A DNA stretch of 64,000 nucleotides. It comes from Paraspadella gotoi. Lineage: Eukaryota; Animalia; Chaetognatha. The position numbers were made by a program, and so were the translations under genes. The notes beneath the pieces are model-generated. The model had not been told where the DNA came from. It saw only the letters and a list, made by a program, of their open reading frames with translations, and did no database searches. The DNA lies in assembly GCA_051294375.1 (NCBI GenBank), contig CM119270.1, positions 21,440,456-21,504,455 of the forward strand, in the 5' to 3' direction. Every line of letters begins with the position of its first letter. Position 1 is the first letter of the stretch. This document shows positions 33,069 to 55,026 of this stretch, piece by piece.

Positions 33069-34007
33069 ATGGGAGGCGAAGACGACGATGCCGGTAGTGA
33101 TTACGTTCACAGGAGTTGGGGTGACTCCTGGGAAGACTTCACACAGAACACGACCATGCACGGGTTCAGATACATCTTTGACCCAACCCCATTTAAGATC
33201 AGAAGGTAAGTATTGAGTAGGCTAAGACTTAAGAGGGTAAGGTTATTAAAGAATGTTATTAGCTGGAACTAGGATTATCAGTGAGGTAATATCGATGACA
33301 AAAGTTTTCTTCTAAACCCAAGGGTCCCGGGTTCTAGTCCTGAGTAACCTTACGGTTGCCTTGCCGCCGGATCCAATTATCCGTAATGCTATATCGGCCG
33401 CGAGGGGATAAATTTCTCTGAATATACTACATTGGAAATCCTCTCAACATTACTGTTTAAAAAAACTAAACTAAGTTAAAAGATTAATTCATAAAAATGT
33501 TTGTCAGTGGCTTTGGTTTAGGTCCAGATAAATTTCCCTGACCAATGAATTAAAATCGCCTATCCAAAGTCACGAGACGGATAGCTTGAATGTCTAATTT
33601 TCTATTTCTTATACAAATTTCATAAATAAATTTGTCGGTTTTCAAGAATTTTAAAAAGTTACGATGAGGTAATCGAAAATGCTTCTTCGATTGAATGAAT
33701 TATTCATTGTTGGTGATCGACATTTACTGCTTGCCAGTAAAGTTCAAGCATTTACTGCTTGCCAGCAAAGTTCAAGCGTCGGAAAGGTTGACAAGATGTG
33801 ATCGTTCACAGTGTGATGTGCTGATTCACCACTTGTGATTTTATTCTTTAATTATATCGACCTACTTGTGATAGAACAAACAGTTGGGAATTAAATTAAA
33901 ATAAAGAAAATAAAAAAGTGTTAAGAGATCCTTATGTGATAAAGAAGTTGAGTATTTACTTTTCATTTGATAATTTTTATGTTCTCATGCTGACAGAGAG
34001 ATAATGA

Positions 34008-34043
<36 letters not shown>

Positions 34044-35001
34044 ATTTATTTGAAAATTTGTTGTAATGATTGATGTCATCATTATTATAATTATCACTAT
34101 TACATCAACATTATCATTAATATTATATAATTTGTAAAAAAATGAATGAATATGTTATAAAACATCTACACGAAGGAATAATATTTTGTAAACATTATAC
34201 GTACTACCATGATAGAAAAAAACTTGTCATGGTTTGTAAAAATTATTACATTTCATTCTCAAATACTTTTTTTGGAAGATATCGTGATCTCCAAAAAATA
34301 GTTTGGATGTTGTCTTCACGACATTAAATACCATTCGATATTCATTTGACAATAAATTGTAAGGCTGCATATTTTCCTATACACAACTATCTAGGATATT
34401 ATTGTTTTCAGATTATTATGGATTCTTGTGGTGATCGGTTGTTTCATGGCCGCAACGAGCCAAATCATTATGCAAGTGATGTATCTCCTGTCGGACCCTG
34501 AGGCGGCGAACATCAAGGTGGTCTACAAAGACATGCTCCCTTTCCCGGCCATCACCATCTGCAATCAAAATCAGTTCAGGTACATCGGACCTTTGAGGAT
34601 TAACGGCTCGAGTACGCGCTGGTGGTTACGATGTTTCCCTCTACAAAAATTACAATACTTCGAAACGGTACTTTAAGAAAACGGCCCATCTCAGCTTTTT
34701 TTTTTTTCGCCATGCCGTGCCATGCTGTTCAGGATTGTGTTGGAAAAATTCAAAGCTCCTATTTCATACTGACTTCATAGTATAGTCATAGTCATAGTAG
34801 TAAATAAACATAGAATTGGGGGTTGGAGTGGGAGAGACGCGAAAGAAAAACGAAAAGATTTGAAGAGAAAAAAAGACTAGGAATTTTTTAAATTTTAGAT
34901 TTCTGGCATTGCATCGGGACTTGCCTGTTCCATAGCATCAGCAGAAGCGTCCATCTTGACAATGGATTTAAGAAAGAAACTTCTTTTACGCAAGACTGTC
35001 C

Positions 35002-35154: not shown

Positions 35155-38100
35155 TTCAAAGCCAAAATCTTTCCGTCAGCAATTCTGTGTTTTTATTGTC
35201 GACAAAAAAATCAAAAACGAAAGAAAAGTAGAAAAATAGTAAAAAGTCCCGGCTTCTCAATTGCGTTAGAAAAACATCAATGAATTAAGCTTTCAACTGC
35301 AATCGCGAACTGTGGACTTGATGCTGACATCTGCGGTATTCTTTAAGAACCACCTTTTATGTTTCTCGATCCGTAATTTATTAAAAGGAGTTTCACTGGT
35401 AAAGGGCCATTAATAGTGTATCTCATTTGCTGTTTATCGTAAAAATGAGATCTGTATTTTGTTTGAAAGCTAAAAAGCTTTTGTTTATGGTGCAAGAATA
35501 ATCAGGACTTTCTTCTTGTGCTTTTACATCGTTTTGGGTAATTTTTTTTGCGGCAAAAAAATTTTTAAATTATATTAAAAGAGAAACTAATTTTTTTATT
35601 TAAATATATATTAATATTAATAATAATAATATGATTTGTTTGTTTCAGAGTTTCGGCGACGGGAGCAACGCCCCTACCGGGAAATCCCAACATGACCTAC
35701 TACGATTTGATTAACATCATTTACGGGGAGAAATACCCGGAGGCAGAGCAGCTCGAAGAGTGGGGTGTAGCCGACAAAACGTTTCACGATCTTTACGAAG
35801 TCGGAAATCACCTCAAGGACAACATGTTGATTACGTGAGTCGGGGCATTCTTGTCAACATTGGCCGGTGAACGATGAGTACGAATCATTTTCTTGGTTGA
35901 GGTCAGATTGAAAAAAAAAAACGTGAAATAATAAACTGTTGTGTCTGAGAAATACATTTTTTCATTTGGGCCAATCGTTGTGGTTCACGCGGTACCATGT
36001 ATTCTTTTTTGCCCTGTTGAATTATAAAAATTATTTGTAGAATTCGCCACTTAAACCTCGCATCTTTTCGTTTTTCACTAAAAAAAAGCGAAATAAAAAA
36101 AAGGAACAATTTTTATGAAAGCCTCAACGTTTTTCTTTTCTGTTTTCGATGACCTTTCCCAGAAAAGAGACTTTTTCTTTTTTTTCTTTTGCTTTTTCTG
36201 CTTTTTCTTTTTCTGTTTTTGCTCTTCTTTTTCTGTTTTTGCTATTTCCTATTGTGTGATTCTGCGTGCGCGCGTGTGAGCGTGCGTGCGTGCATGTGTG
36301 TTTTCCTTCTTCAGTATGAAAGTTATCACTCGGGAATCTCTCTCTCTCTCTCTCNNNNNNNNNNNNNNNNNNNNNNNNNNNNNNNNNNNNNNNNNNNNNN
36401 NNNNNNNNNNNNNNNNNNNNNNNNNNNNNNNNNNNNNNNNNNNNNNNNNNNNNNNNNNNNNNNNNNNNNNNNNNNNNNNNNNNNNNNNNNNNNNNNNNNN
36501 NNNNNNNNNNNNNNNNNNNNNNNNNNNNNNNNNNNNNNNNNNNNNNNNNNNNNNNNNNNNNNNNNNNNNNNCCAGATGCAAAATGGGGCGAAAGGTTTGC
36601 TCCATCGCCAACTTCACTCGGATAATCACAGATCACGGGGTTTGTTTCACATTCAACACGATGCTTGACGAGGGCGGGAACAAGATCGAAGACGCGGAGT
36701 TAATACCGATTNNNNNNNNNNNNNNNNNNNNNNNNNNNNNNNNNNNNNNNNNNNNNNNNNNNNNNNNNNNNNNNNNNNNNNNNNNNNNNNNNNNNNNNNN
36801 NNNNNNNNNNNNNNNNNNNNNNNNNNNNNNNNNNNNNNNNNNNNNNNNNNNNNNNNNNNNNNNNNNNNNNNNNNNNNNNNNNNNNNNNNNNNNNNNNNNN
36901 NNNNNNNNNNNNNNNNNNNNNNNNNNNNNNNNNNNNNNNNNNNNNNNNNNNNNNNNNNNNNNNNNNNNNNNNNNNNNNNNNNNNNNNNNNNNNNNNNNNN
37001 NNNNNNNNNNNNNNNNNNNNNNNNNNNNNNNNNNNNNNNNNNNNNNNNNNNNNNNNNNNNNNNNNNNNNAATGAATGAATGAATGAATGAATGAATGAAT
37101 GAATGCTTGTTAGAATTGGTGTTCTTTTTAGAAATTGAGTCCCCTAAAGATTTAATGAGCGTATGAATATTCTCATCAGGACTCGACATTGGACAATGCA
37201 CTTGAGTTAATTTCAATGTGAATCATATTTTCTTATTTAATTAATTAAAATTAATGTTCCCAAGACGCCGCAGCGGCGGCTAAAAAAGAGCGGCTCGCTG
37301 CTCACTTTTCCGACGCTTTTCCCTCGAGAGGAAAAGTTTTCAGTCACGAAACGGGTAACGAAAAAAAACTGTGTAATCGATGGGCCTTTTTAGCGGGTCC
37401 AAAATCTTGGCTCAATTTTATCATTTACGTCAAACTCATTCGGTTCTTTTTTAATTTTGGTGGGAGGGCAAAAGGTCCGCTAGTTTTTGGAACTGTACAA
37501 TTTTTAATATCGACAAAAGAGATATTGGTACAGCTTTTTATTAGTACAGGGAGCTTATAAAAAACATTTCTCATCCTTTTTCTTTGCTTTTGGGTTTTTG
37601 CACAAGAAAGGACAGTGGACACACAATTTGGGGCAAAACAAACGTGGGATTTTAATTTAACTTCTCACTCATTTTCTTCCCTTTTCCCTCCACCCATCCA
37701 CAACCCACCCACCTACCCATCCACCACCCCTTCCCCTATCCCTCTATTCTCCTTAACCCCCTTTTCTCCAACCAACAGGAATCGCAGAGGGTTTAAAGCT
37801 TCAGATTAACGTAGAGCAATATGAGTACATGCGAGGTCCACACGACTCCGCTGGACTCAAGATTCTCATTCACGATCCCTACGAATTTCCCCAAGTCGGC
37901 GACCTGGGCGAAGCCGTGGCGCCTGAGACCGTCACGCTGGTCGGGCTGAGACTTTTGGAGGTCAGTAGCTGGGCTGGCGCAGAAGCTGTGGTGCCTGAGA
38001 CCAGTACACGCTGGCATCGGGCGGAGAACACTTTGGAGGTCCAGGTAGCTGGGCTGGGCTAAGCCGAGGCACCTGAGACCATCACGCTAGTTGGTATCAC

Positions 38101-41100
38101 GATAGTTGGGCCCTAGTTCATGATCTGTGTTGCTCACACTGTTTTGTCTGAGACATTTGTTGACCTGTGCTTTGGCTGGAAAACCTGTAGGGACTTAGAC
38201 CGTAACACTGGTCAGGCTGAGGTCAGTAGTCGGGCGAAGACTTTTGGATGTCAGTGGTCAGGAGACTGGTAGGTTAGCAGACTGGAGGTCAGGTTAAGCA
38301 AAGCTATTGGTCAGTATGTTCATTTTTTTATGTTTAATACTAAATTATACTTCTAAATTCTTTATTTTCTTTGCCTTTTTTCAGATGTGGGCCCGAGATT
38401 CCAAATGCCAGCGAAACGGGCAGCTCGACTATTTCGATCATTACACCAAAGTGAGTCCAACGCATTTCTTAGAAATTCTTACCTTTGATTTCTTTAACAC
38501 CCTTGTCTTTTAAGTTGATTTTCAAAATCGATGGTTTTATGTTGATTTGTGTTACAAAATCTTTTAATTTGACTTAAACGTTTAAGATTTCTATGTCAGA
38601 AAAGTGACTTTTTATTGCTCTTGCTTCTTATTCTTTTCCCCTCCAGGTGACTTGCAAATTGGATTGCAAGACGCAATTCCTGGTCCGGAGATGTGGCTGC
38701 AAGGAAGCCCACGTTCCGGGCCTCAGACTGAACGCAACGACATACAACGCTTCCTTTGTGTCTTACTCCACTAACATCGGCAGCACACACGGTGATTGAA
38801 GTGAAACTCAGTTTTTTTAATATTATGTTTGTTAAGTTTGTTTAATCTTATATCGTTTCCTTTACAAGGCAAATAATTATTTATTTATTGCTATTGTAGA
38901 GTGTAGATAAATCTTAAGTCCGTTTTTGTTTGTGAATTTAATTTGTGAATACAATTTCAATATTTAAGCTGGACAAAATTTCCTCAAAATTTGTGAGAAA
39001 TTTTTGAAGATAATCAAAGATAATTAATTAAATATTGTTTTTTTTAATTTTATTGCAGAAAATTCCTCAATTTTCGAGGACGTCCCTTATTGTAACCTGA
39101 GCGCCCAATTGCATTGTATCCCAAAGGCTTCGGGTAAGTCTTTCCGATGGGTTGAGTCGTTTTAAGTTTTTGAAAAACATATTTGCGTATTGCGGTAGTA
39201 TAAGTTTTTAATTTCATTTTTTGTTGCTTTAATTCAACAAATAATTCCTGTATTTATAAATTATAATAATGCTTAGGTAACTTGGCGCTATCATTTTTCA
39301 ACTTAAATTATTTCCCGTTCAAGAGAAAAAAAATTAAAAAGCAAACCGCAAAAAGAAACTCAGAAATTCGATTTTGAGAACATAAACCTGAAATTAGGCG
39401 TTTAATAAAAATGTTCGTTCAATGAATGAATGAACAAAAAGCTTAATGACAGCTGTTCATAGAAACAATATTGTTATTAAATAAGTTGTTTTTACTTGTA
39501 TTTCATGTCAACTTTTTAGACGAATTTCAACTCTGGAAAACGAACGAAACTCATCAAGAGGAATGTGAGAAACGCTACGTCCAGATCAAAGACGGGTCAG
39601 GATTTAATATTATCCTTAGTTTATTTGGACCTTGTATTATTTTGTTATATTTTTAGATGTAGGTATATCTTATTCGTGTATCTTTTATCTCATTTATCTT
39701 TAACTTTAATCTTTTTTCCAATCCTTTGTTTTCTTTATTTCCTTTTCATCCATTCTTCCTTTATTTCTTCACTACTTCTTTTCCCTTTTCCTTACCCTGT
39801 CCTCTGCCTTCCCTTCTTCCCATCTCCCCCCTCCCCCTCTCTCCCATCTCCTCTTCCACTCCCTCCCCTCTCTCCCATCTCCTCCCTTCCACTCCCCTTC
39901 CGCCTCTACTCCCTTCTCCCCCCTTCCCCTCTCTCCCTTCTCCCCCCTTCCCCTCTCTCCCATCTCCCCCTTCCACTCCCCTTCCCTTTCTCTCCCATCT
40001 CCTCCTTCCACTCCCCTCCCCCTCTCTCCCATCTCCTCCTTCCACTCCCTCCCCTCTCTCCCATCCCTCCCTTCCACTGCCCTTCCCCTCCCCTACTTTT
40101 CTCCTTATCCCACTCTCCCTCCCCCCTGAACCTCCACCCCCCCAAAGTTAAACGAGGTGGAGCCTTCTCCCGGAAAGGGGAGACTTTTTTGCTTCTGTCC
40201 TGGACCGCTGCAAGACAAAGAACTTCTGTAGTCCGCGGGTCATATCGCTATTCAGATACTTCCAACTTCAACCTTGAGCGGACTTCTTAAATGAAGATAA
40301 GTTCAAAACAATTGCAGGTCCGTGTTGGGTCCAAGGGCGAGAGGGAGGGGGGAAATATTATTTTCAGAGATGTTGGCGATATTTTTCGGGAAAACTCCTC
40401 TATTTCTGTTCCTTTATCCATGAAATTGACTAATTTTGACTTTTAACCACTTAACCTATTTTCTTTTTAGCTCCTTTTTTCTTGAGATCCCTAGACGTAT
40501 TTTGCGAGAGATTTAATACATTTTTACTTTATATTTCAACCTAAATATATTTTTCAGTTTATAAAATAATCTTTAACCCTAATCTTTAACCATGACCCTT
40601 AACCCTAACCTAATCCGGACCCTTAACTCTAAACCCTTATCCTTAAACACTAACCTAAAATTTAATTCAGAATTTAAGGTAAAATTGGGCATTCTGGGTA
40701 AATAAGGCCAATATTTTACCATATGCCTAACCCAACCCTTGAACCTAAACCCTAACCTTATTGCCTCATCTATTCCTTTTAACTAATCCCAGACTCTCTT
40801 TCTTAAACTTATTTTTAGTTTTGCTTAAAGTATTTATTTACTTTTCATAACGAACCATAAGTAGGATCATCACTAAGCCACCAATCTTTGCAAACCATTT
40901 TTTTTCAAATTTTAATTTTTTTATTAATTACGCCTATCAAATTTATCGTTAGAGCTTTTTTTGCTATTTTCCCCCCGGAGTGTAATTTCTTTGTCTTTTG
41001 TTTTTTTTTTTAACAGGCCACCCCCGAATTGTAGAACTTCTAGCGCGAAAGAAAAGAATTAAGAGCGACAAAATAAAAACAAAAAACATATTTTTTTCTT

Positions 41101-42597
41101 TTTGAAAAAAAATTCAGAAATTGAGATCATTTAGTAAGATCATTTAATTTAATAAGATCATTTAATTTATTCTCCAGTACGAACTAACGAAAGCTCGGGA
41201 AAGCAAAGACTCCACGGACGTAGATACGAAGGAGAGGGATACAAATGCTTTTAGGAATCTGTACCTCGTATTGGAGTACATTCTGTCGGTAAGAATCTGT
41301 ACCTCGTATTGGAGTACATTCTGTCGGTAGGAAACAATAAAAAGAAAGGGGAATGACTAGAAAAGTTGAGAGAGAATGATATTAAAAATAGGTTAAAAAC
41401 ATCAAAAGAAAAAGAATCCACGAATTAAATGTTAAAATAGCTACATCGACGTGTTTCAGGTTCTCCACAGAATCGATGGCGAATTGCAAGAGTTGATGGA
41501 ATACTTTCTGCAACGCAAAGAGGAGATGGAATCGTTGCACGAAGTTCAGATGAAAGGAATTCGTGATATGAGAAGAAGATTCAAGTCTCAATTTTTTAAA
41601 GGTGAAAAAAAAAAGTCGATTGTGCTTAACGAGTTCATGAATAAACAAACAAAAAATAGTTTATCTTATTAGTCAACAAAATATAACCGATTCCGTGTAT
41701 CGCACTCTCTAGAAACAATGAAGCAGAATTTCAAGAATATTCCTGTTTCCCAATTTTTTCATTAACAAACTTTTATCACTTATTTTATAACTAATCCACT
41801 CCCGACTAACTTTTCAGATTTTTTTTTACTTTCTCTTCTTTACAATATTTTAAACTGCACAATATTTCTCTTCCTCCCTTTCTCCTCTCCCTTCGCCTTC
41901 TCTCCCCTGTCTCTCCTCTCTCTCCTCTCCACTTCTCTCTCCCTCCCTTTCTCTCTCCTTCTACCTCTCTCTCCCTCCCCTCTCTCCCTCCCTTCTCCCC
42001 TCCTCCTCCCTTCTCTCCTCTTCCTCTCACCTCCTCTCTCTCCCTCCCGTTCTCTCCCTTCTCTCTCCCTCTCCTCCCCTCCCTCCCTCTCTCCCTCCCC
42101 TTACTCCCCTCTCTCTCCCTCCCGTCCCCTCTCAGGTGTTGAGCTGTTCCACGAGAGGCACTTTTCGTCCTTAACGTGGGGATATAGAGAAATGCTCGAA
42201 TCGCTAGAAAATCAAAGAAAAGAATTAGTCAATTTTGACCAAATCAACGAGACGTTTAAACGTACAATATTCACCCTGGCCAGGTGATATATATTTCTAA
42301 TATAATCTTTAATAGATGAGTAATTTATCCGTGTTGAAAAGTAGTTTATAGTTTATTTTATTATAATAAACTTAAAATCGAAAAATATACAATCTTAAGT
42401 CAAATACAGAAAAAAAAATCTGAATTTGTGAAGAAAACTTAACTTTGTCATCATTTTTCTAAATTTAATTTTAAAAAAACCTAACAAAAAATCCAAATAT
42501 CTATAACAACCCGCTTCTTTGTGGCGTTGCTAAGCGACGAGAAATGAGAAGAGCAAAACGCGGAAAAAGAACGAAAAGAATTAAAGATCATTTTTTG

Positions 42598-42656
<59 letters not shown>

Positions 42657-45600
42657 AAAAGCCGAGGATTTTCCTTCAATCGCCTTTTCTCGATTTTCTT
42701 CGTCGCCGTCGGCGCGAATCAAAGCCGCGGATTTTCGCCGAAATTTTCGGTCGATTTTCCATTTTAATTTGTGAAGATTTCCTCTTAAAGTTGGTTGTGA
42801 ATTGAGTTTATTGGTTCTAAATATATGAAAAAAGTTGAGTTTTCTGAAAAGAAAAGTCAACAATACGTATTTTTAAATAAGCTTTTTAAAATCCCAGCTT
42901 AATAGAAAACTATTTTTAATAATAATAAAAATATTGAGGGAGAATTTTTAATGAAAATCGGGGTCATTTTTTCTTATTGACCACATTTTAATCGTTTCTC
43001 TAAAATAATTTTGACAAATAATAAAAATTCGACTTTTACTAACCGTTTGCGATAAAGAAGAAAAACTATTAAACCGTTGTCTTTGGTAACAAAGATTTGT
43101 CATGTTGATCTGACCAATTGTGGGACGAAAGTCGTGATGGGCAAACGATATGGGTTCACGTTTTGACACAAATGATTTACTAAATATAAGCAAATCCCCA
43201 GAAAGATTTTCCTTCATTACCTTAGCATACAAATGAGTGGTCCATGCACAGAACTAATCAACCGTGATCAATGACCAATCGCTTATACTCACTCATTAAT
43301 GGATGAGCTCCATTAGTAATCCTTATATCTACTCCAAATTTTGACATTTTTAAATTTAAAATAAAATTTTTAAAAATATTCCAAGCTTAAAAAAAATAAA
43401 TTAAAAAACTTAATTTTTAATTAGCGTCCCTTTTTTACGTTATTACAAGAATAGTTTTAATATTTCGCGATTAAAGAATTTTATATTCATCTTTTAAAAT
43501 TGACTTCACAAATTCAAGGTTTTTTAATTATCAGAAAATGAAATTAAATCTTTAAAGTTTAAAAAGCTCTAAAAAAAGTTTTGATTTTTTTTGGTTTTTT
43601 TATTAAAGAACTATTGCACTGATGAAGAACAAAACAATGATTGAAACATGTCTGCTAATAAATAAATAAATTCGTTGTGAAAAATCAAAATTTGTTTTCT
43701 AAAACTTTTTTGTTTCAAAAATAGTTTATATTTTACCTTTATTCTGCATTCATTATATTTATTTTACATTTATAACTTAATAATCCGGTGCAAACTGTAC
43801 TTCGATTTTAAAAACGATAATCTTAAAAATGATAATATTAAATAATTAAAATTGTCTTATTTTGTCCCCGTCATCCATATCCAAATACAAAAACAGTTCT
43901 TACTACGAGTAAATACATTAGACAGTTATCAGAGGTTGCATGTCTAATTGGGCTGCACGAAAATTAATCATATAACAGCTAAATTTGGTTAATATTTGGG
44001 TTTTATATAAAGATTGCATTAAAATATATGGTGGTTTACCCTTCCTGGGTCATTGTATTTAATCGCGTTGCACTTTAATTATTCTCTGATGGTCAACCAG
44101 TTTAACCAGTACAATAATTAGTAAAATGTTCATTCGTATTTTTTCATTTTTCAGAATAACATTACAGGGGAGAGTAGACGTTTATCATAGGGTCATGGTC
44201 AAACTGGAGGAATGCTTCAACCATTACAAGTAAGTCGCGTTACTTCGAATTCGATTTTAATATCGTTTAGATTGTTAGTATTTTCCCTGATAGGAATCTA
44301 TCTAATTTTCTAGTATGTAATACTGTCACATATTTTTAAGGTTTATTTAGTTTTGTATTGCATTCAATATAAGCCGTAAAAATTCCATTCAGTTCTAAAA
44401 TAGATTCACTTATCAAATCAGACTTAATTAACTAATTTTCCTAGCACGCTAAAAAATGCAAATGAGTTTTCGAAACTAAACAACTGTGGTGAATCCTAAA
44501 TTCGCCTCCCGTATAGCTTGGTAAAAATCAGCTCGTCCCCTGGGCTTGGTCAGTTAAGTATTCTTTCACCAACCGTGAGTTCCGCGTTTAATCCCCTCAC
44601 GGTCACGCTGGTTTAGTGTGATTGTGTTGGCAAAACACGGTAGTGATGTAGGGTGGTCACTGCAGGTCCAAAGCCCTGAGCTCCATCTGTCGGTAGATGC
44701 TTCCCACCNNNNNNNNNNNNNNNNNNNNNNNNNNNNNNNNNNNNNNNNNNNNNNNNNNNNNNNNNNNNNNNNNNNNNNNNNNNNNNNNNNNNNNNNNNNN
44801 NNNNNNNNNNNNNNNNNNNNNNNTCGTGCAAATTACACATGGTTTTCACCTATTTCATATGATCTTCTTTTTCGCTCTTTTCTTGATCTTTTATTTTTTT
44901 ATTTCTCCGCCATATCTTCTTTATCTTCCCCCCTTTTATTCATGTCCTATTCTTTCTTCTCACCTTCCCAAACATTATCTATCTAATCATATTATCTTAT
45001 CTATCTATCTATTTTATCTATGTTTTGTCTCCCATTCCAGCCGAAACGACGACATGTTCAGCGAACTTAATGATCACCCTAGAGATGGGACATGTTGTTG
45101 CTTAACTAATCTATCTATCTATTATCTATCTTATCTATCTATCTATCTATCTATCCTTCATCCAATTCCAGCGAAACGACGCCATTCAGCGAACTTGATG
45201 ATCCCCGAGAGAGGGGCATGCCGTTGCCTGTGACTTACATCAAAGCCGCCGCCGACAGGGAAGAACTTACAAGGAGATCAAACGCTACTTGAAAGAAGTA
45301 CAGGAGAGGAATCGAAGGTGACTGAGCGGACCGAATGTGACCCGTTGTGACCCTTAGCCTTACCCACATGTGAAGAAAAAATAAGATGTTAATGTCTCAT
45401 GGAAAAAAAAAATTCTCTGGAAACAAAAGTTTGTTTTATTATTTAGGATTATATAATTTTTTGATATATTAGATATTACTGTTATTACGATTATTATTAT
45501 TATATTATTATTATTAATATATTATTATATTATCTATTATTATTATTCATTATTACTTATTATTATTATTATCATATTATTATTATTATTATTATTATAT

Positions 45601-48600
45601 TATTATTAATTATTATTAAATATATTATCATAATTCCCCTCAAATAAATTGACAATTTAAACAAAATGTTACTTCATAGAACATATTTTTTGTTTGCTTA
45701 AATCTCTCTCTGTTACGACTATCGAGTTTATAAAATATTTGAGGAGTATCTTTGCTCGGCCGGCAGAGCCGGACCATCGCCGGAACGAATGCCACGAGCC
45801 AACTCGTCGTCTCAATCTCATTTGCATATTGAAGCGTTGACAAGAAAGTTGCAAAAGCCAAAGTTTACAACTATAAAACACCCTAAAATTCTATTTTATG
45901 GAAGGCAATATAAAAATATTTATTTAAAATGTTTACAAATGATATTTATTTTATTTTTTGACATAACATAATGTATATTTTCATTCAGTGTTAACTATAT
46001 TTTCCTTACCAGGTTTCAAAAAATACTTCTCCCAGCTCTTCAAGGATCAAATAATGGATCAGGAATATTTGACCAACCGAGAACGCCTCAAGGATGCGTG
46101 CGAAAATCTCGAGCGCCTCATGGCCGAGATGGAAGAAATATATAGACAAGTGAGAAACTAAAACAAAATTAAATATATAATTTGTTTATAATATAAAAAA
46201 TAATATATTGTAAACAATGATTAATGAATTGTTGAAAAAAAATAGGTTTGAATTATAAATGAGGAGAGACCTAGTTTACAAATGAATTTCAAATTCACTA
46301 TTGGCTATAAAGTAAAATTATGGAAAATTATGTAATTGATATTTAGTTAATGAAACATGAAAAATTCTTAAATTGTTGATTTCTATTTTTAAAGCTAAAG
46401 TTTAGAGTAAACAAAGTGTTTTTGAATTTATGACAACGATTTATTTTAATAGACGGACATGTCTCGACTCTTTGGGTTCGAGTCTTCATCAGCATTTATT
46501 AAAATTAATCGCTATCACAAATTCAAAAGCACTTTGTTTTCTCTAAATATTAAATAACAACGAAAAGAAAGGATTATCACATGTAACAAAGCTAAAGTTA
46601 AATTAGATAATTTAAAAGAAAAAAATATTTCTGTGGTTTCTTTTTGCCTCCTCTCTCTCCNNNNNNNNNNNNNNNNNNNNNNNNNNNNNNNNNNNNNNNN
46701 NNNNNNNNNNNNNNNNNNNNNNNNNNNNNNNNNNNNNNNNNNNNNNNNNNNNNNNNNNNNNNNNNNNNNNNNNNNNNNNNNNNNNNNNNNNNNNNNNNNN
46801 NNNNNNNNNNNNNNNNNNNNNNNNNNNNNNNNNNNNNNNNNNNNNNNNNNNNNNNNNNNNNNNNNNNNNNNNNNNNNNNNNNNNNNNNNNNNNNNNNNNN
46901 NNNNNNNNNNNNNNNNNNNNNNNNNNNNNNNNNNNNNNNNNNNNNNNNNNNNNNNNNNNNNNNNNNNNNNNNNNNNNNNNNNNNNNNNNNNNNNNNNNNN
47001 NNNNNNNNNNNNNNNNNNNNNNNNNNNNNNNNNNNNNNNNNNNNNNNNNNNNNNNNNNNNNNNNNNNNNNNNNNNNNNNNNNNNNNNNNNNNNNNNNNNN
47101 NNNNNNNNNNNNNNNNNNNNNNNNNNNNNNNNNNNNNNNNNNNNNNNNNNNNNNNNNNNNNNNNNNNNNNNNNNNNNNNNNNNNNNNNNNNNNNNNNNNN
47201 NNNNNNNNNNNNNNNNNNNNNNNNNNNNNNNNNNNNNNNNNNNNNNNNNNNNNNNNNNNNNNNNNNNNNNNNNNNNNNNNNNNNNNNNNNNNNNNNNNNN
47301 NNNNNNNNNNNNNNNNNNNNNNNNNNNNNNNNNNNNNNNNNNNNNNNNNNNNNNNNNNNNNNNNNNNNNNNNNNNNNNNNNNNNNNNNNNNNNNNNNNNN
47401 NNNNNNNNNNNNNNNNNNNNNNNNNNNNNNNNNNNNNNNNNNNNNNNNNNNNNNNNNNNNNNNNNNNNNNCTCTCTCTCTCTCTCGCTCTCTCCAGCCGG
47501 AAGAAAAACTGACCAAAGACGAGATCGAACTGGAGCGCGTCTTCCAAGAGTCCAAGGAATCATTTGAGAGAATTGAGGAAGACATCGATTCTCTCGTAGA
47601 CAGATTGCGGCATATCCCTCAGAGGGTAAGTCAGGCTCTTTGCGGCAGATTGCGGCATATTCCTCAGAGGTTAAGTTGGGCTCTTTACAGCAGATTGCAG
47701 CATATCCCGCCGAGGGTAGGTTGGGCTTTTTACGACAGATTGTGGCTTATCCCTCAGAGGGTAGGTTGGGCTCTTTGCAACAGATTGCGGCATATCCCTC
47801 AGAGGGTAGGTTGGGCTCTTTGTGACAGTTTGAGGCATATCCCTCAGAGGGTAAGTCGGGATCATTGTGGAGGATTGCGGCAAATCCTTCAGAGAATAGG
47901 TTGGGCTCTTTACGGCAGATTGCGGCACATCCCTCAGAGAATAGGTTGGGCTCTTTACGGCAGATTGTGGCTTATCCCTGAGAAGGTAGGTGGGGTACTT
48001 TACAGCAGATTGCAGCATATTCCTCAGAGGGTAGGTTGGGCTCTTTATGGTAGATAGTGGGACATTCCTCAGAGGGTAGGTGGGAACCTTTGCTGCAGAT
48101 TGCAACATATTCCTCAGAGGGTAGGTTGGGTTTTTTTCAGCACATTGTAGCATATTCCTCAGAGGGTATGTTGGGCTCTCTGCGCAAATTGTAGCATATC
48201 CTTTAAAGAGTAGGTTAAGCTCTTTACAGCAGATTGCCACAAATTCTTCAGAGGGTAAGTGAGGTAAGTGAGCATATCCCTCAGAGGGTAGGTTGTGCTC
48301 TTAGTGTTAGATTGTGGCACATCCCTCTGAGGGTAGGTGGGAATCTTTGCGGCAGATTGCAGCATATCCCTTAACAAAAAAATAAATTAAAAAAAAATAA
48401 ATAAATAAAACTTTATTTTGAGCTGAACTTCTTTCCCAGGAAATGGAATATGCAATGAACGTAGCGCGTCTATTCTTGAACCAAACGAAAACAAAGTCCG
48501 ACTTGAGCGAAATCATCATTGGAGACGATATGAGGAACGCGTTAGAATCGCTCAAGGTATTAATATTAGTATTATTATTATTATTATTAGACTTTGTATT

Positions 48601-51600
48601 AATATTAAAGTAAAATTATTTTAGAATTTTTAAAGGTTTGAATGAATCAAACTTCTATGTATAATTTTTTTTATTTTTAAAACACGTTTCCCAAAATCCA
48701 GTATAATTTTGTAAGTAATTTTGATTGTTTTGTTTAAAATTTTACTGTATGTAAGGTGAACAAATGTCTTTTTTGTTTGTGGTGATAGCACTGGCTTATT
48801 TGGAGTGTCACATTCATTTTTGTTATTTACAATGACAACCTACCATTTCTCATTGTTTTTTATCTCACTTGGAAATTTTCAATTTTGTTTAAAATTTTTA
48901 AACATTCATTTGGGAATCACTTTTCTCACTACTAAATTGACTTCACAAAACATTATTGTCTCATTGGTATATTTATGTATTGTAAAACCTTTTTTTTAAA
49001 TTCTCAATTCTTATATTTCCTTGCCGTCAGGAATACCTGAACGACATGGAGATTTCCTCAAAAAAACTGCTGATAAACTTCGAAGTCCTGCAGAGAGGAA
49101 TGCAGGAATTTTGGAAGGCCATTTCTGCCAACGAGGATTACAGAAAGTGAGGACTGGGGCTGTTAGTGTTTGGTGCTTGTGAATGATTGCTTTGTTACTA
49201 TTTGCCATTCTTTAATTTAGTTTTTTTTATTTTAGGACACTCTTAATACTTGGCGAATATGTTGATAAAATTTAGGTTTAATAATAAAAAAATCGAGTTT
49301 GGTAAATTTTTGTGCAAATAAAGGTGATTATTCAGACTGAGGTCCTATGGGATGAATTTAGATCAGATTAGGTTATATAAAATTGGTTATATAAAATTGG
49401 TAATAAGTTGAAAGTAGTATTTTTCACAATTTTCCTTAAAAACCTTATCTTTACGCTGTCCCCTAATCTTGCCTGGCTCGACTCGGCTAAAAAATTGGCA
49501 AGCTAAAAATATTCCGACATATATTATCTTTGTATCATTGTTACACTATGCCTCCCCTCTTACAGGCTCCACTCGGCCGACAAATCGGCAAGTCTTAGAG
49601 CCTTCACCGAATTCAAGCAGAGGCTGGCCGCGTTGTCGGCTATGAGGAAAGAGTTGGGTCCATCCAAAGTTGTCATCGAACCACATCGATATTCAGACGA
49701 TAGCGGAGGGGTCATTGAAAACATCCATGTCAGATTAGGGGATATGACGGAGGAGTTACAAGGTATGAACTGTCTCTCTCTCTATCTCTCTCTTTTTCTT
49801 GCTCTCTCTTTCATCCATGTCAGTTTAGGAGACATGACAGAGGAGTTACAAGGTATGAACTGTCTCTCTCTCTCTCTTGCTCTTGCTCTCTCTTTCATCC
49901 ATGTTAGATTAGGAGACATGATGAAGGAGTTAAAAGGTTTGAACTGTCTCTCTCTGTCTCTTGCTCTCACTCTCTCTTTCATCCATGTCAGATTAGGGGA
50001 TCTGACGGAGGAGTTAAAAGGTTTGAACTGTCTCTCTCTCTCTCTCTCTCCCACTCTCCCACTCTCCCACTCTCTCACTCTCTCTCTCTCCCACTCTCTC
50101 TCCCCCCCTCAACAGGATACGAAGGAGATTCGGAAAGTAATTCGTCAGCGATTGACGTCTTTGCATCGGTTTTAGAAACCGGAAGAAAAATCATGGATAA
50201 ATTCGTTTCTGGCAACCAAATCACGACGTCATTTTTAAAGTTAGTAAATGACTATTTTGATATTATTATAATTTATTATTATTGTCGTTTATTAGCTTCT
50301 TTGTTTCGTCTGTCTGTCCGTCTGTTAGTCTTTCCGTGAACATTACGTTTTAAATAAATAAGGATTCTAAAGCAAAATTCGTTACGGAAAAAGGTGCTAT
50401 GGTCTAAATCACGTGTTTTCGGAGATCCAATGAAAAAATGTTTTGTGCGTAACCAATGAGGAAGAGGCAAAGATGAGGAGGAGGAAGAGGAGGAGAAAGA
50501 GGAGAAGGAAGAGGAGAAGGAGGGCATTTAATATCATCGAAGTATTGTGTATAGATTTTTTAAAAAAGAAAAGTTAAAAGCGTATATGAAATAAAGGGAG
50601 TATGGCAACGGGAGGATAGCCTGTGATACCCGGGGCGCGGGGTATCTCACCAACTGGCGTAGGGGCTGCGGACCCTCAGTGACCGCCTCCTGTCACTGGC
50701 ATGTTTATACCGGCACCGTCACATTTAAGCCAGAACCGGGATACCCAGGGATTGAACCCGGGACGCACGGATGGAATGAGATGATTTAGCCTGCTCAGCC
50801 ATTGAGACGAGGCTGAGGACGGACAGCAGTGAGGCAGCTTTAAGTCTTGCTGCCACAGGAGGGTATTTTTGAAAAATAATTCAATACAAATTAATAACAA
50901 ATTAATGACATTGGTGTTCAGTCCAAAATTAAAAGCTTTAATCGAAATTGTTAACCCCTACCCCAAGTTGATAAACGTTATCAAAAGAAGCAAAATAATT
51001 TTAAAACCAAAAATTAATATATGCAATTAACACATTGTAATCATTCTAAATAGTATTTTCTTATTTTTATTTCAGAGACAACTTTCTCAGCATTTACTTT
51101 TTCTACCGTGAATTGAATTACCAAATCATCGAATCGCAAGGAGCCTACGGGTTAAAAGATCTAGCTTGTAAGTGGAATTGTAGTATTTGTTAGTTAATTT
51201 TTATTATGAATAATAGATTCGTATTAAAATTATTTTTTTAGTTGCGCAACTCTATAAGTCACTTTTTGGTAGGTCGGTCGGTCGGTAAGTCTATCCGTCG
51301 GTCTGTCCATTTATGTTAAAAATGCATATAATTTTCCTATAGTTGATCACTCATTTGTTAAGACAAGAAAAAACCTCAAATCTAGGGGACTCCTAGCGCC
51401 GCCTTAAGCAAATCCTAAAACTATAAAGGGGCGAAGAAAGTCTTTTAGTCATGTCATATCATGTAATGTCATATCATGTGATCAAAGGGAAATACACGTG
51501 AAAATAAAATCACTGGGGCGCAACACATTGAAATTACCGTTCTTGTTTTTCCTAATTTTGACTGTCCCTAAGTTAGCCTAACCTTCCCCAGCCCGGTCTT

Positions 51601-54600
51601 TCCTAATCAAGCTTTGATCTGACCCGTTCTGTCCTTTGTCCTTTGTCTAATGATCTCCCATGTCCTTAAAACCGATCACTATAATTTTTGAAGAGGTCAA
51701 GATTCGGATACAAGCCCGAGTTTCACTCACCTCTATTTACCTCCCTCAATTCCAGCAAACTCTTTTCTCCTCAGCCATCCTAATNNNNNNNNNNNNNNNN
51801 NNNNNNNNNGTGACCACAATTGTACACAGGACTATGACCCAAATACTTGCGATCGCAGCTCCAAATTAACTCATCCATAATCACGACTGACCTGATCTGC
51901 ATTGAACCGACCACAACCCAGTCCCTTCTACCTTCACAACTGACCCGCCCCCGCCCCTAATGTAGCCATGGATCCCCTGGCCTCACAACTGAGCCTGACC
52001 CAACCCTTCCTTAAACATCTACCCTCCAGACCCACTCTGACCTCAACTGACCCTATCCGCCTTAAACCATTACCCGTTCTGACCTCTTCGTGACCTAAAC
52101 TGACCCTACCCCATATCCTTAAAGCTTACCCTACGTGACCCCCCCTTGACCTAAAACTGACCCCTTACCCATTTCAAGATCTATACCCTTCCTGATTCCA
52201 CAAACTGAGCCTTATCCTGGTCTTTAAACTTTCTTTCCTGACCCTTGTACCCAAAGACCCATACCCTCTTAATATATACCACCAAAACCTCCTCTGCTGA
52301 CCACAAATGACTACCTACCTCGTCCATATAAGACTACCCCTCATTGATATCTCCTCTGACCTCAGACTGACCCTACCCACCTAAACTTCGACTCTCCTGA
52401 CTCTCATACTGTACTTCCTTAAACGTACCTGCTGAACCCCTACCTTAAGACTATGCTAACACCTCTCCTGTAACCCCACTGCTACCTCAACCTTACCGCT
52501 CACCTGCAGTTAAACTTTACCCTTCCTGGATCCCCCTACCTCATACTGACTCTAGCCTCTTCAAAACTTGATACCCTTCACTGACCCCTGACCATCATAT
52601 CACCTAACGCCCTTAAATGATCTACCCTTCTTGACCCCCTCTGATGACTCAATACTCCTACCCGTCTGTACTTATAACTTTACCCTTCCGACCCCTCTGA
52701 CCCGAAAAATCAACCTAGACTGCCTTAAACTTAACCTTCTTGACTCCCCTCTGAACCTTCAACTGACCTTACCCGCCTTAAACTTACCCTTATCTCTCTC
52801 TTTTTTGATTGAAAGGGGGATGAATGGTAAGGTGATTGGTAGTTGATTGGTCTTTTTGTTTGAAAGGGGGATGATTGGTGAGGTGATTGGTAGCTGATCG
52901 GTCTTTTTGATTGAAAAGGGGATGATTGTTATTTTATCAATCAATGATTTTTGCCTTGATTTGTCACAGATTTGTCACAGATTTGTCACAGATTGGTCTT
53001 TCATTTTGATTTTGATGGTTTGCTGATTGGTTCTTGATAGGTTATTCATAGCACCACGGACCTCGGTTTCCCTTNNNNNNNNNNNNNNNNNNNNNNNNNN
53101 NNNNNNNNNNNNNNNNNNNNNNNNNNNNNNNNNNNNNNNNNNNNNNNNNNNNNNNNNNNNNNNNNNNNNNNNNNNNNNNNNNNNNNNNNNTGTTGGCCTC
53201 TGATTGCTACTTAATTTTGGGGGTGATTGGACTCTGATTGAAGGCTCAGTTTGGTTTCTGATTATTTTTCTTCAAATTGATTTTCTTATGTATCTAAAAT
53301 ATCAAACGTTGCGCCTTTTCTTTCCCCCCGAAACCTATTTTTCTCTTTCAACAAACGCGACAATAAAACTCGAACCTTCTACAAAATTAACAACAACAAC
53401 AACAATTAACAACACTGACCAACACCGCCCAACCCTCAGAGCAAAAGGCGGGAAGAGAGAAAGGCCAAAAAGGCCTTAGCTTCCGCCCCCGAAGATTTGG
53501 AGGGAGACGAAGGAGAGAGAAAATCTTCGTTCCCTAATCTCTACTCTGCCGATTCCCCCGACGCTCCCCCCCCGAGCAACCACGCCAACAGTCACGCCAA
53601 CAGTCACGCCAACAACGCCCCGGCGCTCGACGCCCCCCCGGCGCCCAACGATTCCGAAACGGCGCCGCTCAAGCACACGCCGCGTTACTATAGCAACCAC
53701 AATTTCGATGACAGCAACGAGGCGATTCCCATGTGAGTTTAATTAATTAATATTAATAATAAAATGAATTAAATATTATTATTATTAATAATGGTCGTTG
53801 ATAATGTTTTATTTTATCTTATTTCTTTCATGAAAATAATTATTACCTAAAAACCTATTTAATACTTTTACATAATTAATTATTAAAATATTAAAATTCT
53901 TCTGTTGAGTTCTATTAAATTTAAATTAACTTATATAAAATTAACTTTTATTAAATTAACTTCTATTAAATACAAACAAAAAAACCTCATAATTCTTATT
54001 CTTCTTTTTAACTGTAGGGAACGCGTAGTGTAAAATTGTAGGCAACAAATGAATTTTTAGCCAAGGTGGGTCGCTTAAATTTACAAATAATTGGTACAAG
54101 TACAAATAATACTCTCATATTCCATTTACAAGCAATAAACAATGTAAATTATACAACTAATATATTCAAAATTAAAATAAACTTGTTTTACAAAATAATA
54201 ACTAATAAATCACGGCACACTACTTAATATGGGTCACTCGTCTTTTAACAGTTAATTGGGTACTTATTTATTTTTTATTCATTAATTACTGCTTATTTTT
54301 CTTATTATTGGCAGAAATGTTCGATAATATAATCGGGATTATTCTAATGTGATTGACTTTAATAATATATAAATAATATTTCCCTTTTCTTTTCTTTATC
54401 CTAGACTTTTTAACTTAAATCTGTTGATGATTCTCTTACTCTTCCTTTCTTCTGCTTTTTAGCCTTATCTTTTGATACCTCTCTCTTAACTATCCCTTTC
54501 TTATACTTTTCTTATGATGCCACTTTCCTTCTTATTCTTCTTTCCTATCTTAATTCTTCTTTCTCTTTTCTCACCTTTCTTTCCACATTAAATCTTCAAC

Positions 54601-55026
54601 CTGACTTTCTTTTCTCCCCTTCTTCAACTATTCTATCTTCTTGCCGTTGCTCGCTCCCATTCCTCCACTCTCCTCCCTCCTCCCCTCTTCTTTCCCGTTC
54701 TTTCTCTTCCAATTTCTCTCCTGCCGGTCACTCTCCCCGCTCCTCTCCCTCCTCTCACTGCTTTCCCTTCCCCTTTTTCCCTCTCGTCTCCCTTCCTCTT
54801 ACTTCGTTCTGCTATCTCTCTCTCTTGCTTCCCTGTGCCCTTCTCTCTCTAGCCCATTCATCTCTCTTCTTTCCCCTCATACTTCTCTTCCTCCTCCTCC
54901 TCCCTACCCTCCTTTCCCTTCCTCCCGCTTATTCTCCTTCCGTCTTCCTCCGCTCGGACTCTCCTCCCTCCCCCCCGCAGGTACGGCGTCCCGTGCGACG
55001 ACGGCCGTCCCCATCGGCGTGTTTAG
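33069..55026 (+). CDS. DEG/ENaC (ASIC-like) channel subunit with a giant extracellular insertion; exons 33069-33205, 34412-34579, 35649-35834, 36576-36711+ (runs into gap), 37779-37960, 38385-38450, 38647-38791, 39059-39133, 39520-39595, ~40149-40317, 41178-41288, 41460-41601, 42136-42283, 44155-44229, 45172-45317, 46013-46149, 47497-47625, 48440-48556, 49031-49146, 49566-49762, 50116-50239, 51076-51167, [TM2 exon not seen], 53440-53732, 54981-55026
   Basis: N-terminal FTQNTTMHGFRYIF (HG motif); TM1 RLLWILVVIGCFMAA; LPFPAITICNQNQFR; TDHGVCFTFN; GLKLQINVEQYEYMRGPHDSAGLKILIHDP; thumb cysteines CKLDCKTQFLVRRCGC and CFCPDRC; pre-TM2 DNFLSIYFFYRELNYQIIESQGAYGLKDLA. Splice phases are consistent. 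Exon 10 has indel noise, exon 15 has an in-frame TGA, and the TM2/GAS exon is probably in a gap. The last exon is uncertain. Confidence 0.9.
33290..33345 (+). mobile_element. tRNA-derived SINE head remnant (same family as 10700-10853)
   Basis: aacccaagggtcccgggttctagtcc (B-box region) resembles the intronic SINE in SREBP. Confidence 0.45.
37907..38262 (+). repeat. Degenerate ~70-bp tandem copies of the DEG/ENaC exon 5 end plus donor
   Basis: gcgaagccgtggcgcctgagaccgtcacgctggtcgggctgagacttttggag|gtcagtagct is followed by two or more decaying copies (gcctgagacc...acgct...tttggaggtc...gtagctgggctgg). Confidence 0.8.
39820..40080. repeat. Pyrimidine-rich ~33-bp minisatellite (ctctctcccatctcctccttccactccctcccc)
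   Basis: Multiple imperfect copies in DEG/ENaC intron 9. Confidence 0.75.
40375..40709. mobile_element. Second copy of the MITE-like element
   Basis: Left end ggcgatatttttcgggaaaactcctctatttctgttcctttat; right end ttgggcattctgggtaaataaggcc; internal aaccctaacc repeats; shares atttctgttcctttat with the 32013 copy. Confidence 0.55.
41255..41330 (+). repeat. 38-bp tandem duplication of the DEG/ENaC exon 11 end plus donor
   Basis: gaatctgtacctcgtattggagtacattctgtcggta starts at 41255 and again at 41293, identical over 37 bp. Confidence 0.95.
43612..43705 (+). ncRNA. Degenerate hammerhead ribozyme motif (copy 4 of the HHR element family)
   Basis: tattgca-CTGATGA-agaac aaaacaat gatt-GAAA-catg-TC-tgctaata, followed by aataaataaattcgttgtgaaaaatcaaa, which resembles the right arm of the 13.3 kb copy. 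Stem II is weakened. Confidence 0.6.
44545..44708 (+). mobile_element. SINE-like remnant related to 50600-50810
   Basis: Body motif ggtggtcactgcaggtccaaagccc resembles ggcggtcactgagggtccgcagccc in the 50.7 kb copy; degenerate A/B boxes; truncated by an N-gap. Confidence 0.4.
46403..46587. mobile_element. Hammerhead-bearing Penelope/retrozyme-like insertion (copy 2) with fold-back arms and 12-bp TSD
   Basis: TSD aaagctaaagtt at 46391-46402 and 46588-46599; 55-bp inverted arms at 46401-46455 and 46493-46547 (8 mismatches); minus-strand core CTGATGA-a-gactc-gaacccaaa-gagtc-GAGA-catg-TC; tail acaacgaaaagaaaggattatcaca. Confidence 0.82.
47601..48370 (+). repeat. 45-bp minisatellite (~17 copies) derived from the DEG/ENaC exon 17 end plus donor
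   Basis: Unit cagattgcggcatatccctcagagg|gtaggttgggctctttacgg starts at 47601, 47646, 47691, 47736 and so on. The first unit overlaps the exon. Confidence 0.95.
49722..50040 (+). repeat. Four tandem copies (periods 90/84/84 bp) of the DEG/ENaC exon 20 end plus donor and (CT)n
   Basis: catccatgtcagattaggggatatgacggaggagttacaag|gtatgaactgtctctctc starts at 49722, 49812, 49896 and 49980. Confidence 0.93.
50600..50810 (-). mobile_element. tRNA-derived SINE-like element
   Basis: Minus strand has A-box tggctgagcagg and B-box ggttcaatccc with tRNA-like spacing, followed by a GC-rich body in an AT-rich intron. Confidence 0.6.
51850..52790. repeat. Degenerate C-rich minisatellite (ctgacctcaactgaccctaccc...cttaaac...tacccttc)
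   Basis: Recurring actgaccct, ccttaaa and acccttc motifs at roughly 50-55 bp spacing across ~900 bp. Confidence 0.65.
52800..52930. repeat. ~52-bp tandem repeat (tttttgattgaaagggggatgattggtgaggtgattggtag)
   Basis: About 2.5 copies. Confidence 0.8.

Follow-up and report, generated by a model that had tools for sequence, protein, structure and literature searches.

A chaetognath DEG/ENaC channel gene with a long, predicted helical insert at the knuckle

The known stimuli of DEG/ENaC channels act at the finger, the thumb and the acidic pocket, and the knuckle is regarded as a small static cap. What, then, could a knuckle enlarged by several hundred residues be for? This question is raised by a 64,000-nucleotide (nt) stretch of the genome of the chaetognath Paraspadella gotoi (assembly GCA_051294375.1, contig CM119270.1, positions 21,440,456 to 21,504,455; hereafter the window, whose numbering is used throughout). 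Its plus strand carries a DEG/ENaC gene that starts at 33069 and extends to 53732 or beyond, in which eleven exons interrupt the channel domain. We consider it almost certain that neither the gene nor its helical insert is an artefact, and they apparently represent a conserved variant of a known channel family that has so far gone without description.

The gene and its transcript

A gene model of 22 exons was rebuilt from splice signals (Table 1). Among its 24 exon pieces, PF00858 matches five, in profile order: exons 2, 4, 5 and 7 at profile positions 23-323 and exon 22, with a weak match, at 403-430 (E 0.048). The 11 insert exons are all without a match to this profile. The HG motif before the first transmembrane segment (TM1), TM1 itself and the Cys-rich thumb are visible in the translations of exons 1, 2 and 6-10. 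Exons 11-21 lie between the two halves of the domain as eleven AG..GT-bounded exons (41178-50239) totalling exactly 1442 nt. The model insert of 483 residues contains 2 Cys, 13% E, 10% L, 8.5% R and 7% K, with the N-glycosylation sequons NET, NET, NQT and NSS. The split domain match, the exon sum and the Cys-poor, E/K/R/L-rich composition had been put forward in a preliminary description made from the letters alone, and all of them were borne out here.

Transcript evidence came from X1, one run of one study, whose RNA status is a guess; no run recorded as RNA was listed. X1 contains 14% of the words of 37100-44700, which is about the share of exons. Its contig 1 (2637 nt, depth 142.8) runs in its 5' part from the end of exon 9 through exons 10, 11 and 12 to the start of exon 13, and in its 3' part, matched as a contig of identical length and depth, from the end of exon 20 through exons 21 and 22 into the tail. 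There are no differences from the window in exons 11, 12, 21, 22 and the tail. Since one contig joins channel exons to both ends of the insert, the insert is, as the preliminary description had also proposed, part of the channel transcript, supported by one probable RNA run, and not a nested gene. By contig coordinates exons 13-20 measure 1074 nt vs 1065 nt in the model; exons 11-21 come to 1451 nt, 9 more than the model's 1442, and no convincing alternative splice site was found to account for the 9 extra nt. The proposed exon chain is confirmed by transcript for exons 9-13 and from exon 20 to the tail, and exons 14-19 rest on this agreement in length together with colinear homology.

Several defects in the assembled gene could suggest that it is a decayed copy, or that exons 11-21 form a nested gene or a fused prediction: exon 10 has frameshifts, exon 15 a stop, the exon for the second transmembrane segment (TM2) is missing from the assembly, and exons 14-19 lack a direct contig match. 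We consider this explanation very improbable. Exon 10 differs from the contig by 13 gap letters and 4 substitutions, and its matched part becomes an open frame once the contig letters are used; the exon 10 defects are assembly errors, and the motif CFCPDRC, previously read in one frame, is not so encoded in the window. The contig also holds 98 letters after exon 22 that have no place in the assembly, keep the frame and are of the size of a TM2 exon, whereas no TM2-like motif was found in the assembled bases between exon 22 and the tail exon in the three plus-strand frames. The insert exons had been described as phase-consistent, which holds apart from a TGA that stands in frame in exon 15 (45290); it is probably a further assembly error, because the alternative frame there resembles P0001, a 949-residue nemertean protein retrieved by exon 5. 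Moreover, dozens of annotated relatives have the identical layout. A nested or antisense gene was also considered and is ruled out by the contig joints; the minus-strand open reading frames (ORFs) there are repeat-derived or antisense to exons. For direct splicing of exon 10 to exon 22, the sole joint into 51076 listed comes from 50239; contigs drop rare forms, and a minor skipped isoform may exist.

Five tandem arrays in the gene are seeded on exon borders (37904-38088, 41255-41333, 47601-48371, 49722-50045 and 44977-45227). Four of them duplicate an exon 3' end and its donor site (periods 78, 38, 45 x17 and 84), and in the fifth (period 130) the repeated unit is the acceptor with the beginning of exon 15. 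The contig is spliced from the first donor of the array at exons 11 and 20. The intronic stretches 50593-50958 and 51203-51568 match many X1 contigs at depths of hundreds to thousands and are interspersed repeats. Compared with P0001, exons 7-9 (38720-39595) encode about 60 extra thumb residues with several N-glycosylation sequons.

Relatives with a long knuckle

PF00858 matches P0001 in two stretches (305 bits), and the inserts of the window and P0001 align with a score of 119 (500 shuffles: 40.8 +/- 6.4, maximum 74). A word-based search with the insert alone returned P0001 only, and no Pfam family was above cut-off for the insert exons or the P0001 insert. A search of 1.84 billion representatives for relatives gave 5474 matches, the best 150 of which were examined. 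Thumb-to-TM2 spacing could be measured in 66 of these 150; it is 460-585 in 24, 229-353 in six and 64-88 in 36, and 547 in the window. Against a profile built from the inserts of 51 relatives, the window excluded, the window insert scores 95.1 bits, in a colinear match that spans positions 12-449 of 451; the highest score among 200 shuffles is 7.4, and the reversed insert scores -4.2.

The named long forms are all spiralian (30 look-ups, a minority of the best 150, and 38 rows) and come from Tubulanus, Lineus, gastropods, bivalves, cephalopods, Owenia, Capitella, Helobdella, Dimorphilus and Intoshia, with at least nine named loci in Lineus and at least four proteins in Tubulanus. Identity among relatives is 14.5% in the insert vs 34-46% in the core; the window core is 40% identical to its nearest relative and forms a long branch. 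Trees were built on the core only, with the insert removed; they are unrooted, their short rows are matches of a long-form query, and they hold no FaNaC or ENaC rows. In the FastTree analysis (142 rows after removal of 18 fragments and tandem forms), the window falls inside a set of 59 rows, of which 58 are long forms (support 97), and two long proteins fall outside the wider long group. In a quick IQ-TREE search (72 rows, a further 70 having been thinned), all 40 long forms lie on one side of a branch with a Shimodaira-Hasegawa-like approximate likelihood ratio of 98, and the window lies in a 30-row long-only set (support 96). We define a long-knuckle spiralian clade by insert homology (about 450 residues between strands beta10 and beta11) and core grouping, and the window has both. 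Judged by sequence, the long insert is a conserved family trait of nemerteans, molluscs and annelids. The earlier suggestion of a conserved but unstudied mollusc and annelid subfamily is upheld by these matches, which add the nemerteans.

The family and C. elegans DEL-10 are likely orthologous. In DEL-10 (NP_495302.3; supplement of PMC9822975) we counted by eye 414 residues from the last thumb Cys to DIGG (64-88 in short forms), corresponding to an insert of about 350 residues at the knuckle site that looks helical and has similar-looking ends; it is about 130 residues shorter than that of the window. DEL-9, MEC-4 and others in the same supplement are short at this site, and several relatives are named 'degenerin-like protein del-10' by NCBI. 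In the accessible part of PMC9822975, Del-10 stands close to ASIC and BASIC and is described as having no known stimulus. One published alignment has been trimmed so that it lacks the DEL-10 insert, which may be a reason why the insert went unremarked.

Two further kinds of enlargement were observed among the relatives. P0094, P0098 and P0120 (Ptychodera), P0131 (Antedon), P0100, P0127 and P0146 carry about 180-220 additional residues at the knuckle, where the long forms have their insert. This hemichordate/crinoid group is separate on the tree, and its inserts score below 4 bits on the insert profile, with no detectable homology; it possibly represents a second, independent knuckle expansion in deuterostomes. 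The giant members P0079 (Capitella), P0106 (Intoshia) and P0138 (1369-2120 residues) have large extracellular additions in the finger besides the knuckle insert, and one is named CUB domain-containing by its source.

Predicted fold and possible role of the insert

Chicken ASIC1 aligns with P0001 up to residue 375 and again from 386, and residues 376-385 are replaced by 472 residues in P0001, which places the insert at the knuckle, where it had first been put. AlphaFold models were made for P0001, which is about 20% identical to the window in the insert. The mean predicted local distance difference test score (pLDDT) was 86.4 for the whole protein and 89.5 for the insert alone, the latter with a predicted template modelling score of 0.78 and nearly all helix (in P0001 numbering 421-498, 507-523, 529-566, 600-633, 638-667, 669-729, 745-787, 790-827 and 840-860). 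Structure alignment divides the insert into a distal (about 480-680) and a proximal (about 425-860) four-helix bundle. The helical character that had been suggested is retained, and the large helical or coiled-coil tower then envisaged for the trimer is modified to a predicted fold of two intrachain four-helix bundles, stacked on long helices. The helix ranges describe an up-down path of about 100 rising and 92 descending residues. An alpha-helix rises 1.5 A per residue, and from helix lengths rather than coordinates the tower would be about 14-15 nm high.

Conservation in the insert peaks in the base helix (A412 of P0001), at the waist (F488, R490, E497, R498; G567, Y573, P588) and at Y796, and is lowest on the stalk (0.46 and 0.39 vs 0.22-0.27); the waist would correspond to residues 480-498 and 567-599. 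Most insertions fall in the loop at 523, at the tip. Sequons are found repeatedly in the family at the presumed tip (columns 525, 633 and 637) and also elsewhere, such as column 556 (40 of 66 rows). The distal bundle matches four-helix sensor domains at Z 10.1-10.9 (root-mean-square deviation, rmsd, 2.7-3.3), and the whole insert can be loosely aligned with McpZ, a sensor of two modules (Z 10.2, 309 aligned, rmsd 13.4). No solved homologue was found by structure alignment or Foldseek, a sequence search of the PDB matched the insert to generic helical proteins only, and the ESM Atlas gave no usable feature match and structure matches at TM<=0.35 by query.

The reading that we favour, at slightly under an even chance with its mechanism included, is that the insert is an antenna, coupled to the knuckle, that binds a ligand or a partner. 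An ASIC-related subunit would carry the roughly 480-residue insert as a helical tower of about 14 nm; an extracellular ligand or protein partner would bind the waist between the bundles or the distal bundle; its movement would pass down the long and base helices to the neighbour's finger and strands beta10 and beta11; and the knuckle and palm would then gate the pore. A sensor is preferred over a tether or a cap because of the paralogue expansion with a fast-evolving insert and the loss of the ASIC wrist histidine (see below), and the many paralogues with low insert identity fit a diversifying receptor set. Coupling of the tower to the core is plausible because in FaNaC the peptide pocket is bordered by the helix of the knuckle (PMC11026163, accessible text) and the knuckle touches the neighbour's finger in ENaC, as an assembly collar (PMC6197857, accessible text).

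A number of points weigh against an antenna. No ligand or pocket was identified, and the conserved waist residues may be structural. The fold is taken from a distant relative, and the RNA support is one run of guessed status. The fold matches are generic: designed bundles head the list (Z 13.6), bacterial sensors are on a level with vinculin, talin, alpha-catenin and TIP47 (Z 9-11), and Foldseek with the insert model gave no matches at E<=0.001. According to the accessible text of PMC11026163, the FaNaC knuckle is fairly static in gating, and according to that of PMC10424705, currents of DEL-10 homomers did not exceed those of controls in a pH screen on oocytes; one figure legend of the latter puts DEL-10 among the amiloride-blocked currents.

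Some of the same evidence bears on the possibility, rather unlikely in our judgement, that the tower is a mechanical tether or lever, whose glycosylated tip would hold matrix or an opposing cell so that pull or shear opens the channel. Knuckle and palm N-glycans are reported to tether alpha-ENaC for shear sensing (PMC6955349, accessible text), the family has sequons at the presumed tip and elsewhere, the giant Capitella and Intoshia members carry large extra extracellular regions, and talin, vinculin and alpha-catenin bundles match at Z 9-10. These last matches are generic, however; the loops at the tip rank with the most poorly conserved parts and those most prone to indels, and many divergent paralogues per species would be less expected of a tether.

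An unlikely alternative is that the insert is structural or regulatory, capping, autoinhibiting, spacing or localising the channel or setting its assembly, with gating through finger or thumb sites or cleavage. The knuckle-finger collar of ENaC (PMC6197857), the silence of DEL-10 homomers in the pH screen (PMC10424705) and the low insert identity would agree with this, and the hemichordate/crinoid clade, whose extra residues lack homology, implies that the site tolerates expansion. Insert length and waist motifs are nevertheless kept across three phyla, beyond the needs of a spacer.

Full-text literature searches, which did not extend to subscription papers or bioRxiv supplements, brought up no account of a helical insert at the knuckle. 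The accessible parts of PMC10507113, PMC9234716, PMC9949801, PMC12919962, PMC13685373, PMC7933985 and PMC10374624 do not mention it; uncharacterised family members from Platynereis, Octopus and Aplysia are present in the supplements of PMC10507113, and family motifs were not found in those of PMC9949801, for which the file format may be the reason. In this family a domain that exceeds the entire normal extracellular domain in size is conserved and sits on the knuckle in many marine invertebrate paralogues; this points to undescribed gating or anchoring, and the tower is a concrete candidate for a long-sought built-in tether or a new ligand module. More tentatively, and with considerable doubt, an ancient protostome ASIC-type branch from C. 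elegans DEL-10 to molluscs and annelids might be gated through helical towers of about 14 nm, one on each subunit, extending to a ligand, to matrix or to an opposing cell about 20 nm from the membrane, a gating module new to DEG/ENaC channels. The tower would also offer a structural hypothesis for the orphan DEL-10, and the gating module is testable with an existing worm deletion strain, listed in the strain table of PMC10374624 (accessible part).

Table 1. Exons and other parts of the DEG/ENaC gene in the window; helix and bundle assignments follow the predicted fold, and profile means the insert profile unless PF00858 is named.
Feature	Position	Strand	Content	Basis
Exon 1	33069..33205	+	Start codon, cytoplasmic N-terminus, HG motif	tblastn vs P0001, E 1e-4
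Exon 2	34412..34579	+	TM1, first palm strands	PF00858, E 1.3e-10
Exon 3	35649..35834	+	Finger	Open frame with AG/GT; no Pfam match
Exon 4	36576..36711	+	Beta-ball; 3' end interrupted by N gap	PF00858, E 3.4e-5
Exons 5-9	37779-37960, 38385-38450, 38647-38791, 39059-39133, 39520-39595	+	Palm, Cys-rich thumb	PF00858 on exons 5 and 7; single open frame; exon 9 end joins exon 10 in contig
Exon 10	40148..40317	+	Thumb end, beta10, knuckle start; several indel errors in assembly
Exon 11	41178..41288	+	Insert base helix	Contig, 0 differences; profile positions 2-25
Exon 12	41460..41601	+	Long rising helix	Contig GT..AG joint, 0 differences
Exon 13	42136..42283	+	Conserved waist motif, first distal-bundle helix	First 30 nt are contig loose end; profile 87-127, 13.7 bits
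Exon 14	44155..44229	+	Distal-bundle helix	Profile 134-156, weak alone
Exon 15	45172..45317	+	Conserved waist loop, next helix; in-frame TGA at 45290	Whole-insert alignment
Exons 16-19	46013-46149, 47497-47625, 48440-48556, 49031-49146	+	Descending long helix, proximal bundle	Colinear in whole-insert profile match; exons 17, 18 and 19 singly at profile 262-300, 311-347 and 352-378
Exon 20	49566..49762	+		3' end is contig loose end
Exon 21	50116..50239	+	Final helix of insert, leading back to knuckle	Contig, 0 differences; GT..AG joint 50239/51076
Exon 22	51076..51167	+	Beta11-beta12, pre-TM2	Contig; PF00858 403-430; P0001 870-903, 50%
Interval expected to hold TM2 exon of about 101 nt	51168..53439	+	N gaps 51785-51809, 53075-53190
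Cytoplasmic tail exon	53440..53732	+		Contig, 0 differences
Candidate last coding exon	54981..55026	+	In frame to stop	Beyond contig end

Elsewhere in the window, we take the end of a minus-strand ORF at 9759-10694 to resemble the basic region of an SREBP-type bHLH protein and that of a plus-strand ORF at 1366-1599 to resemble a LIM-protein C-terminus; Pfam gave no match on either ORF piece and does not confirm these impressions. The fragmented ORFs at about 16900-20900 look like a decayed retroelement, and four ORF pieces from them had no Pfam match.

Comparison with known channels and sensor domains

ASIC1 and BASIC/ASIC5 are the best matches to the core (profile E 8e-117, Z 33.2), and the palm, thumb and TM layout is common to the family, as is the G-A-S belt in relatives: in the G-x-S belt of TM2, G is found in 47 of 51 and S in 46 of 51, the TM2 exon of the window not being in the assembly. 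The knuckle measures about 25 residues in ASIC1/BASIC vs about 500 in the family. Furthermore, among the proton residues of ASIC, the equivalents of chicken ASIC1 His74 and Lys212 are not conserved. The place of the wrist histidine, His74, is taken by Val in P0001, by V in 28, I in eight and T in three of 51 rows, and by Glu in exon 2 of the window; a Lys at the palm site, Lys212, is present in four of 51 relatives, and this site lies at the N-gap end of exon 4 in the window.

The peptide-gated FaNaC/WaNaC channels of annelids and molluscs are likewise spiralian DEG/ENaCs, although their core match is weaker (E 2.7e-70 and 8.8e-50 vs 8e-117), and in the PMC9822975 set the knuckle is short in all four Platynereis channels. 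The C. elegans degenerins MEC-4, DEG-1 and UNC-8 also have large extracellular additions, for which the accessible text of PMC10148893 gives a tether model; these additions are found in the region of the finger and are rich in Cys, and the knuckles are short. Outside the channels, the bacterial sensor domains of PcaY, Vc1313, Adeh_2942, McpZ and TorS share with the predicted insert an up-down four-helix bundle and two stacked modules on long helices. At 4-8% identity, and with Z in the generic range below that of designed bundles, this likeness is an analogy only.

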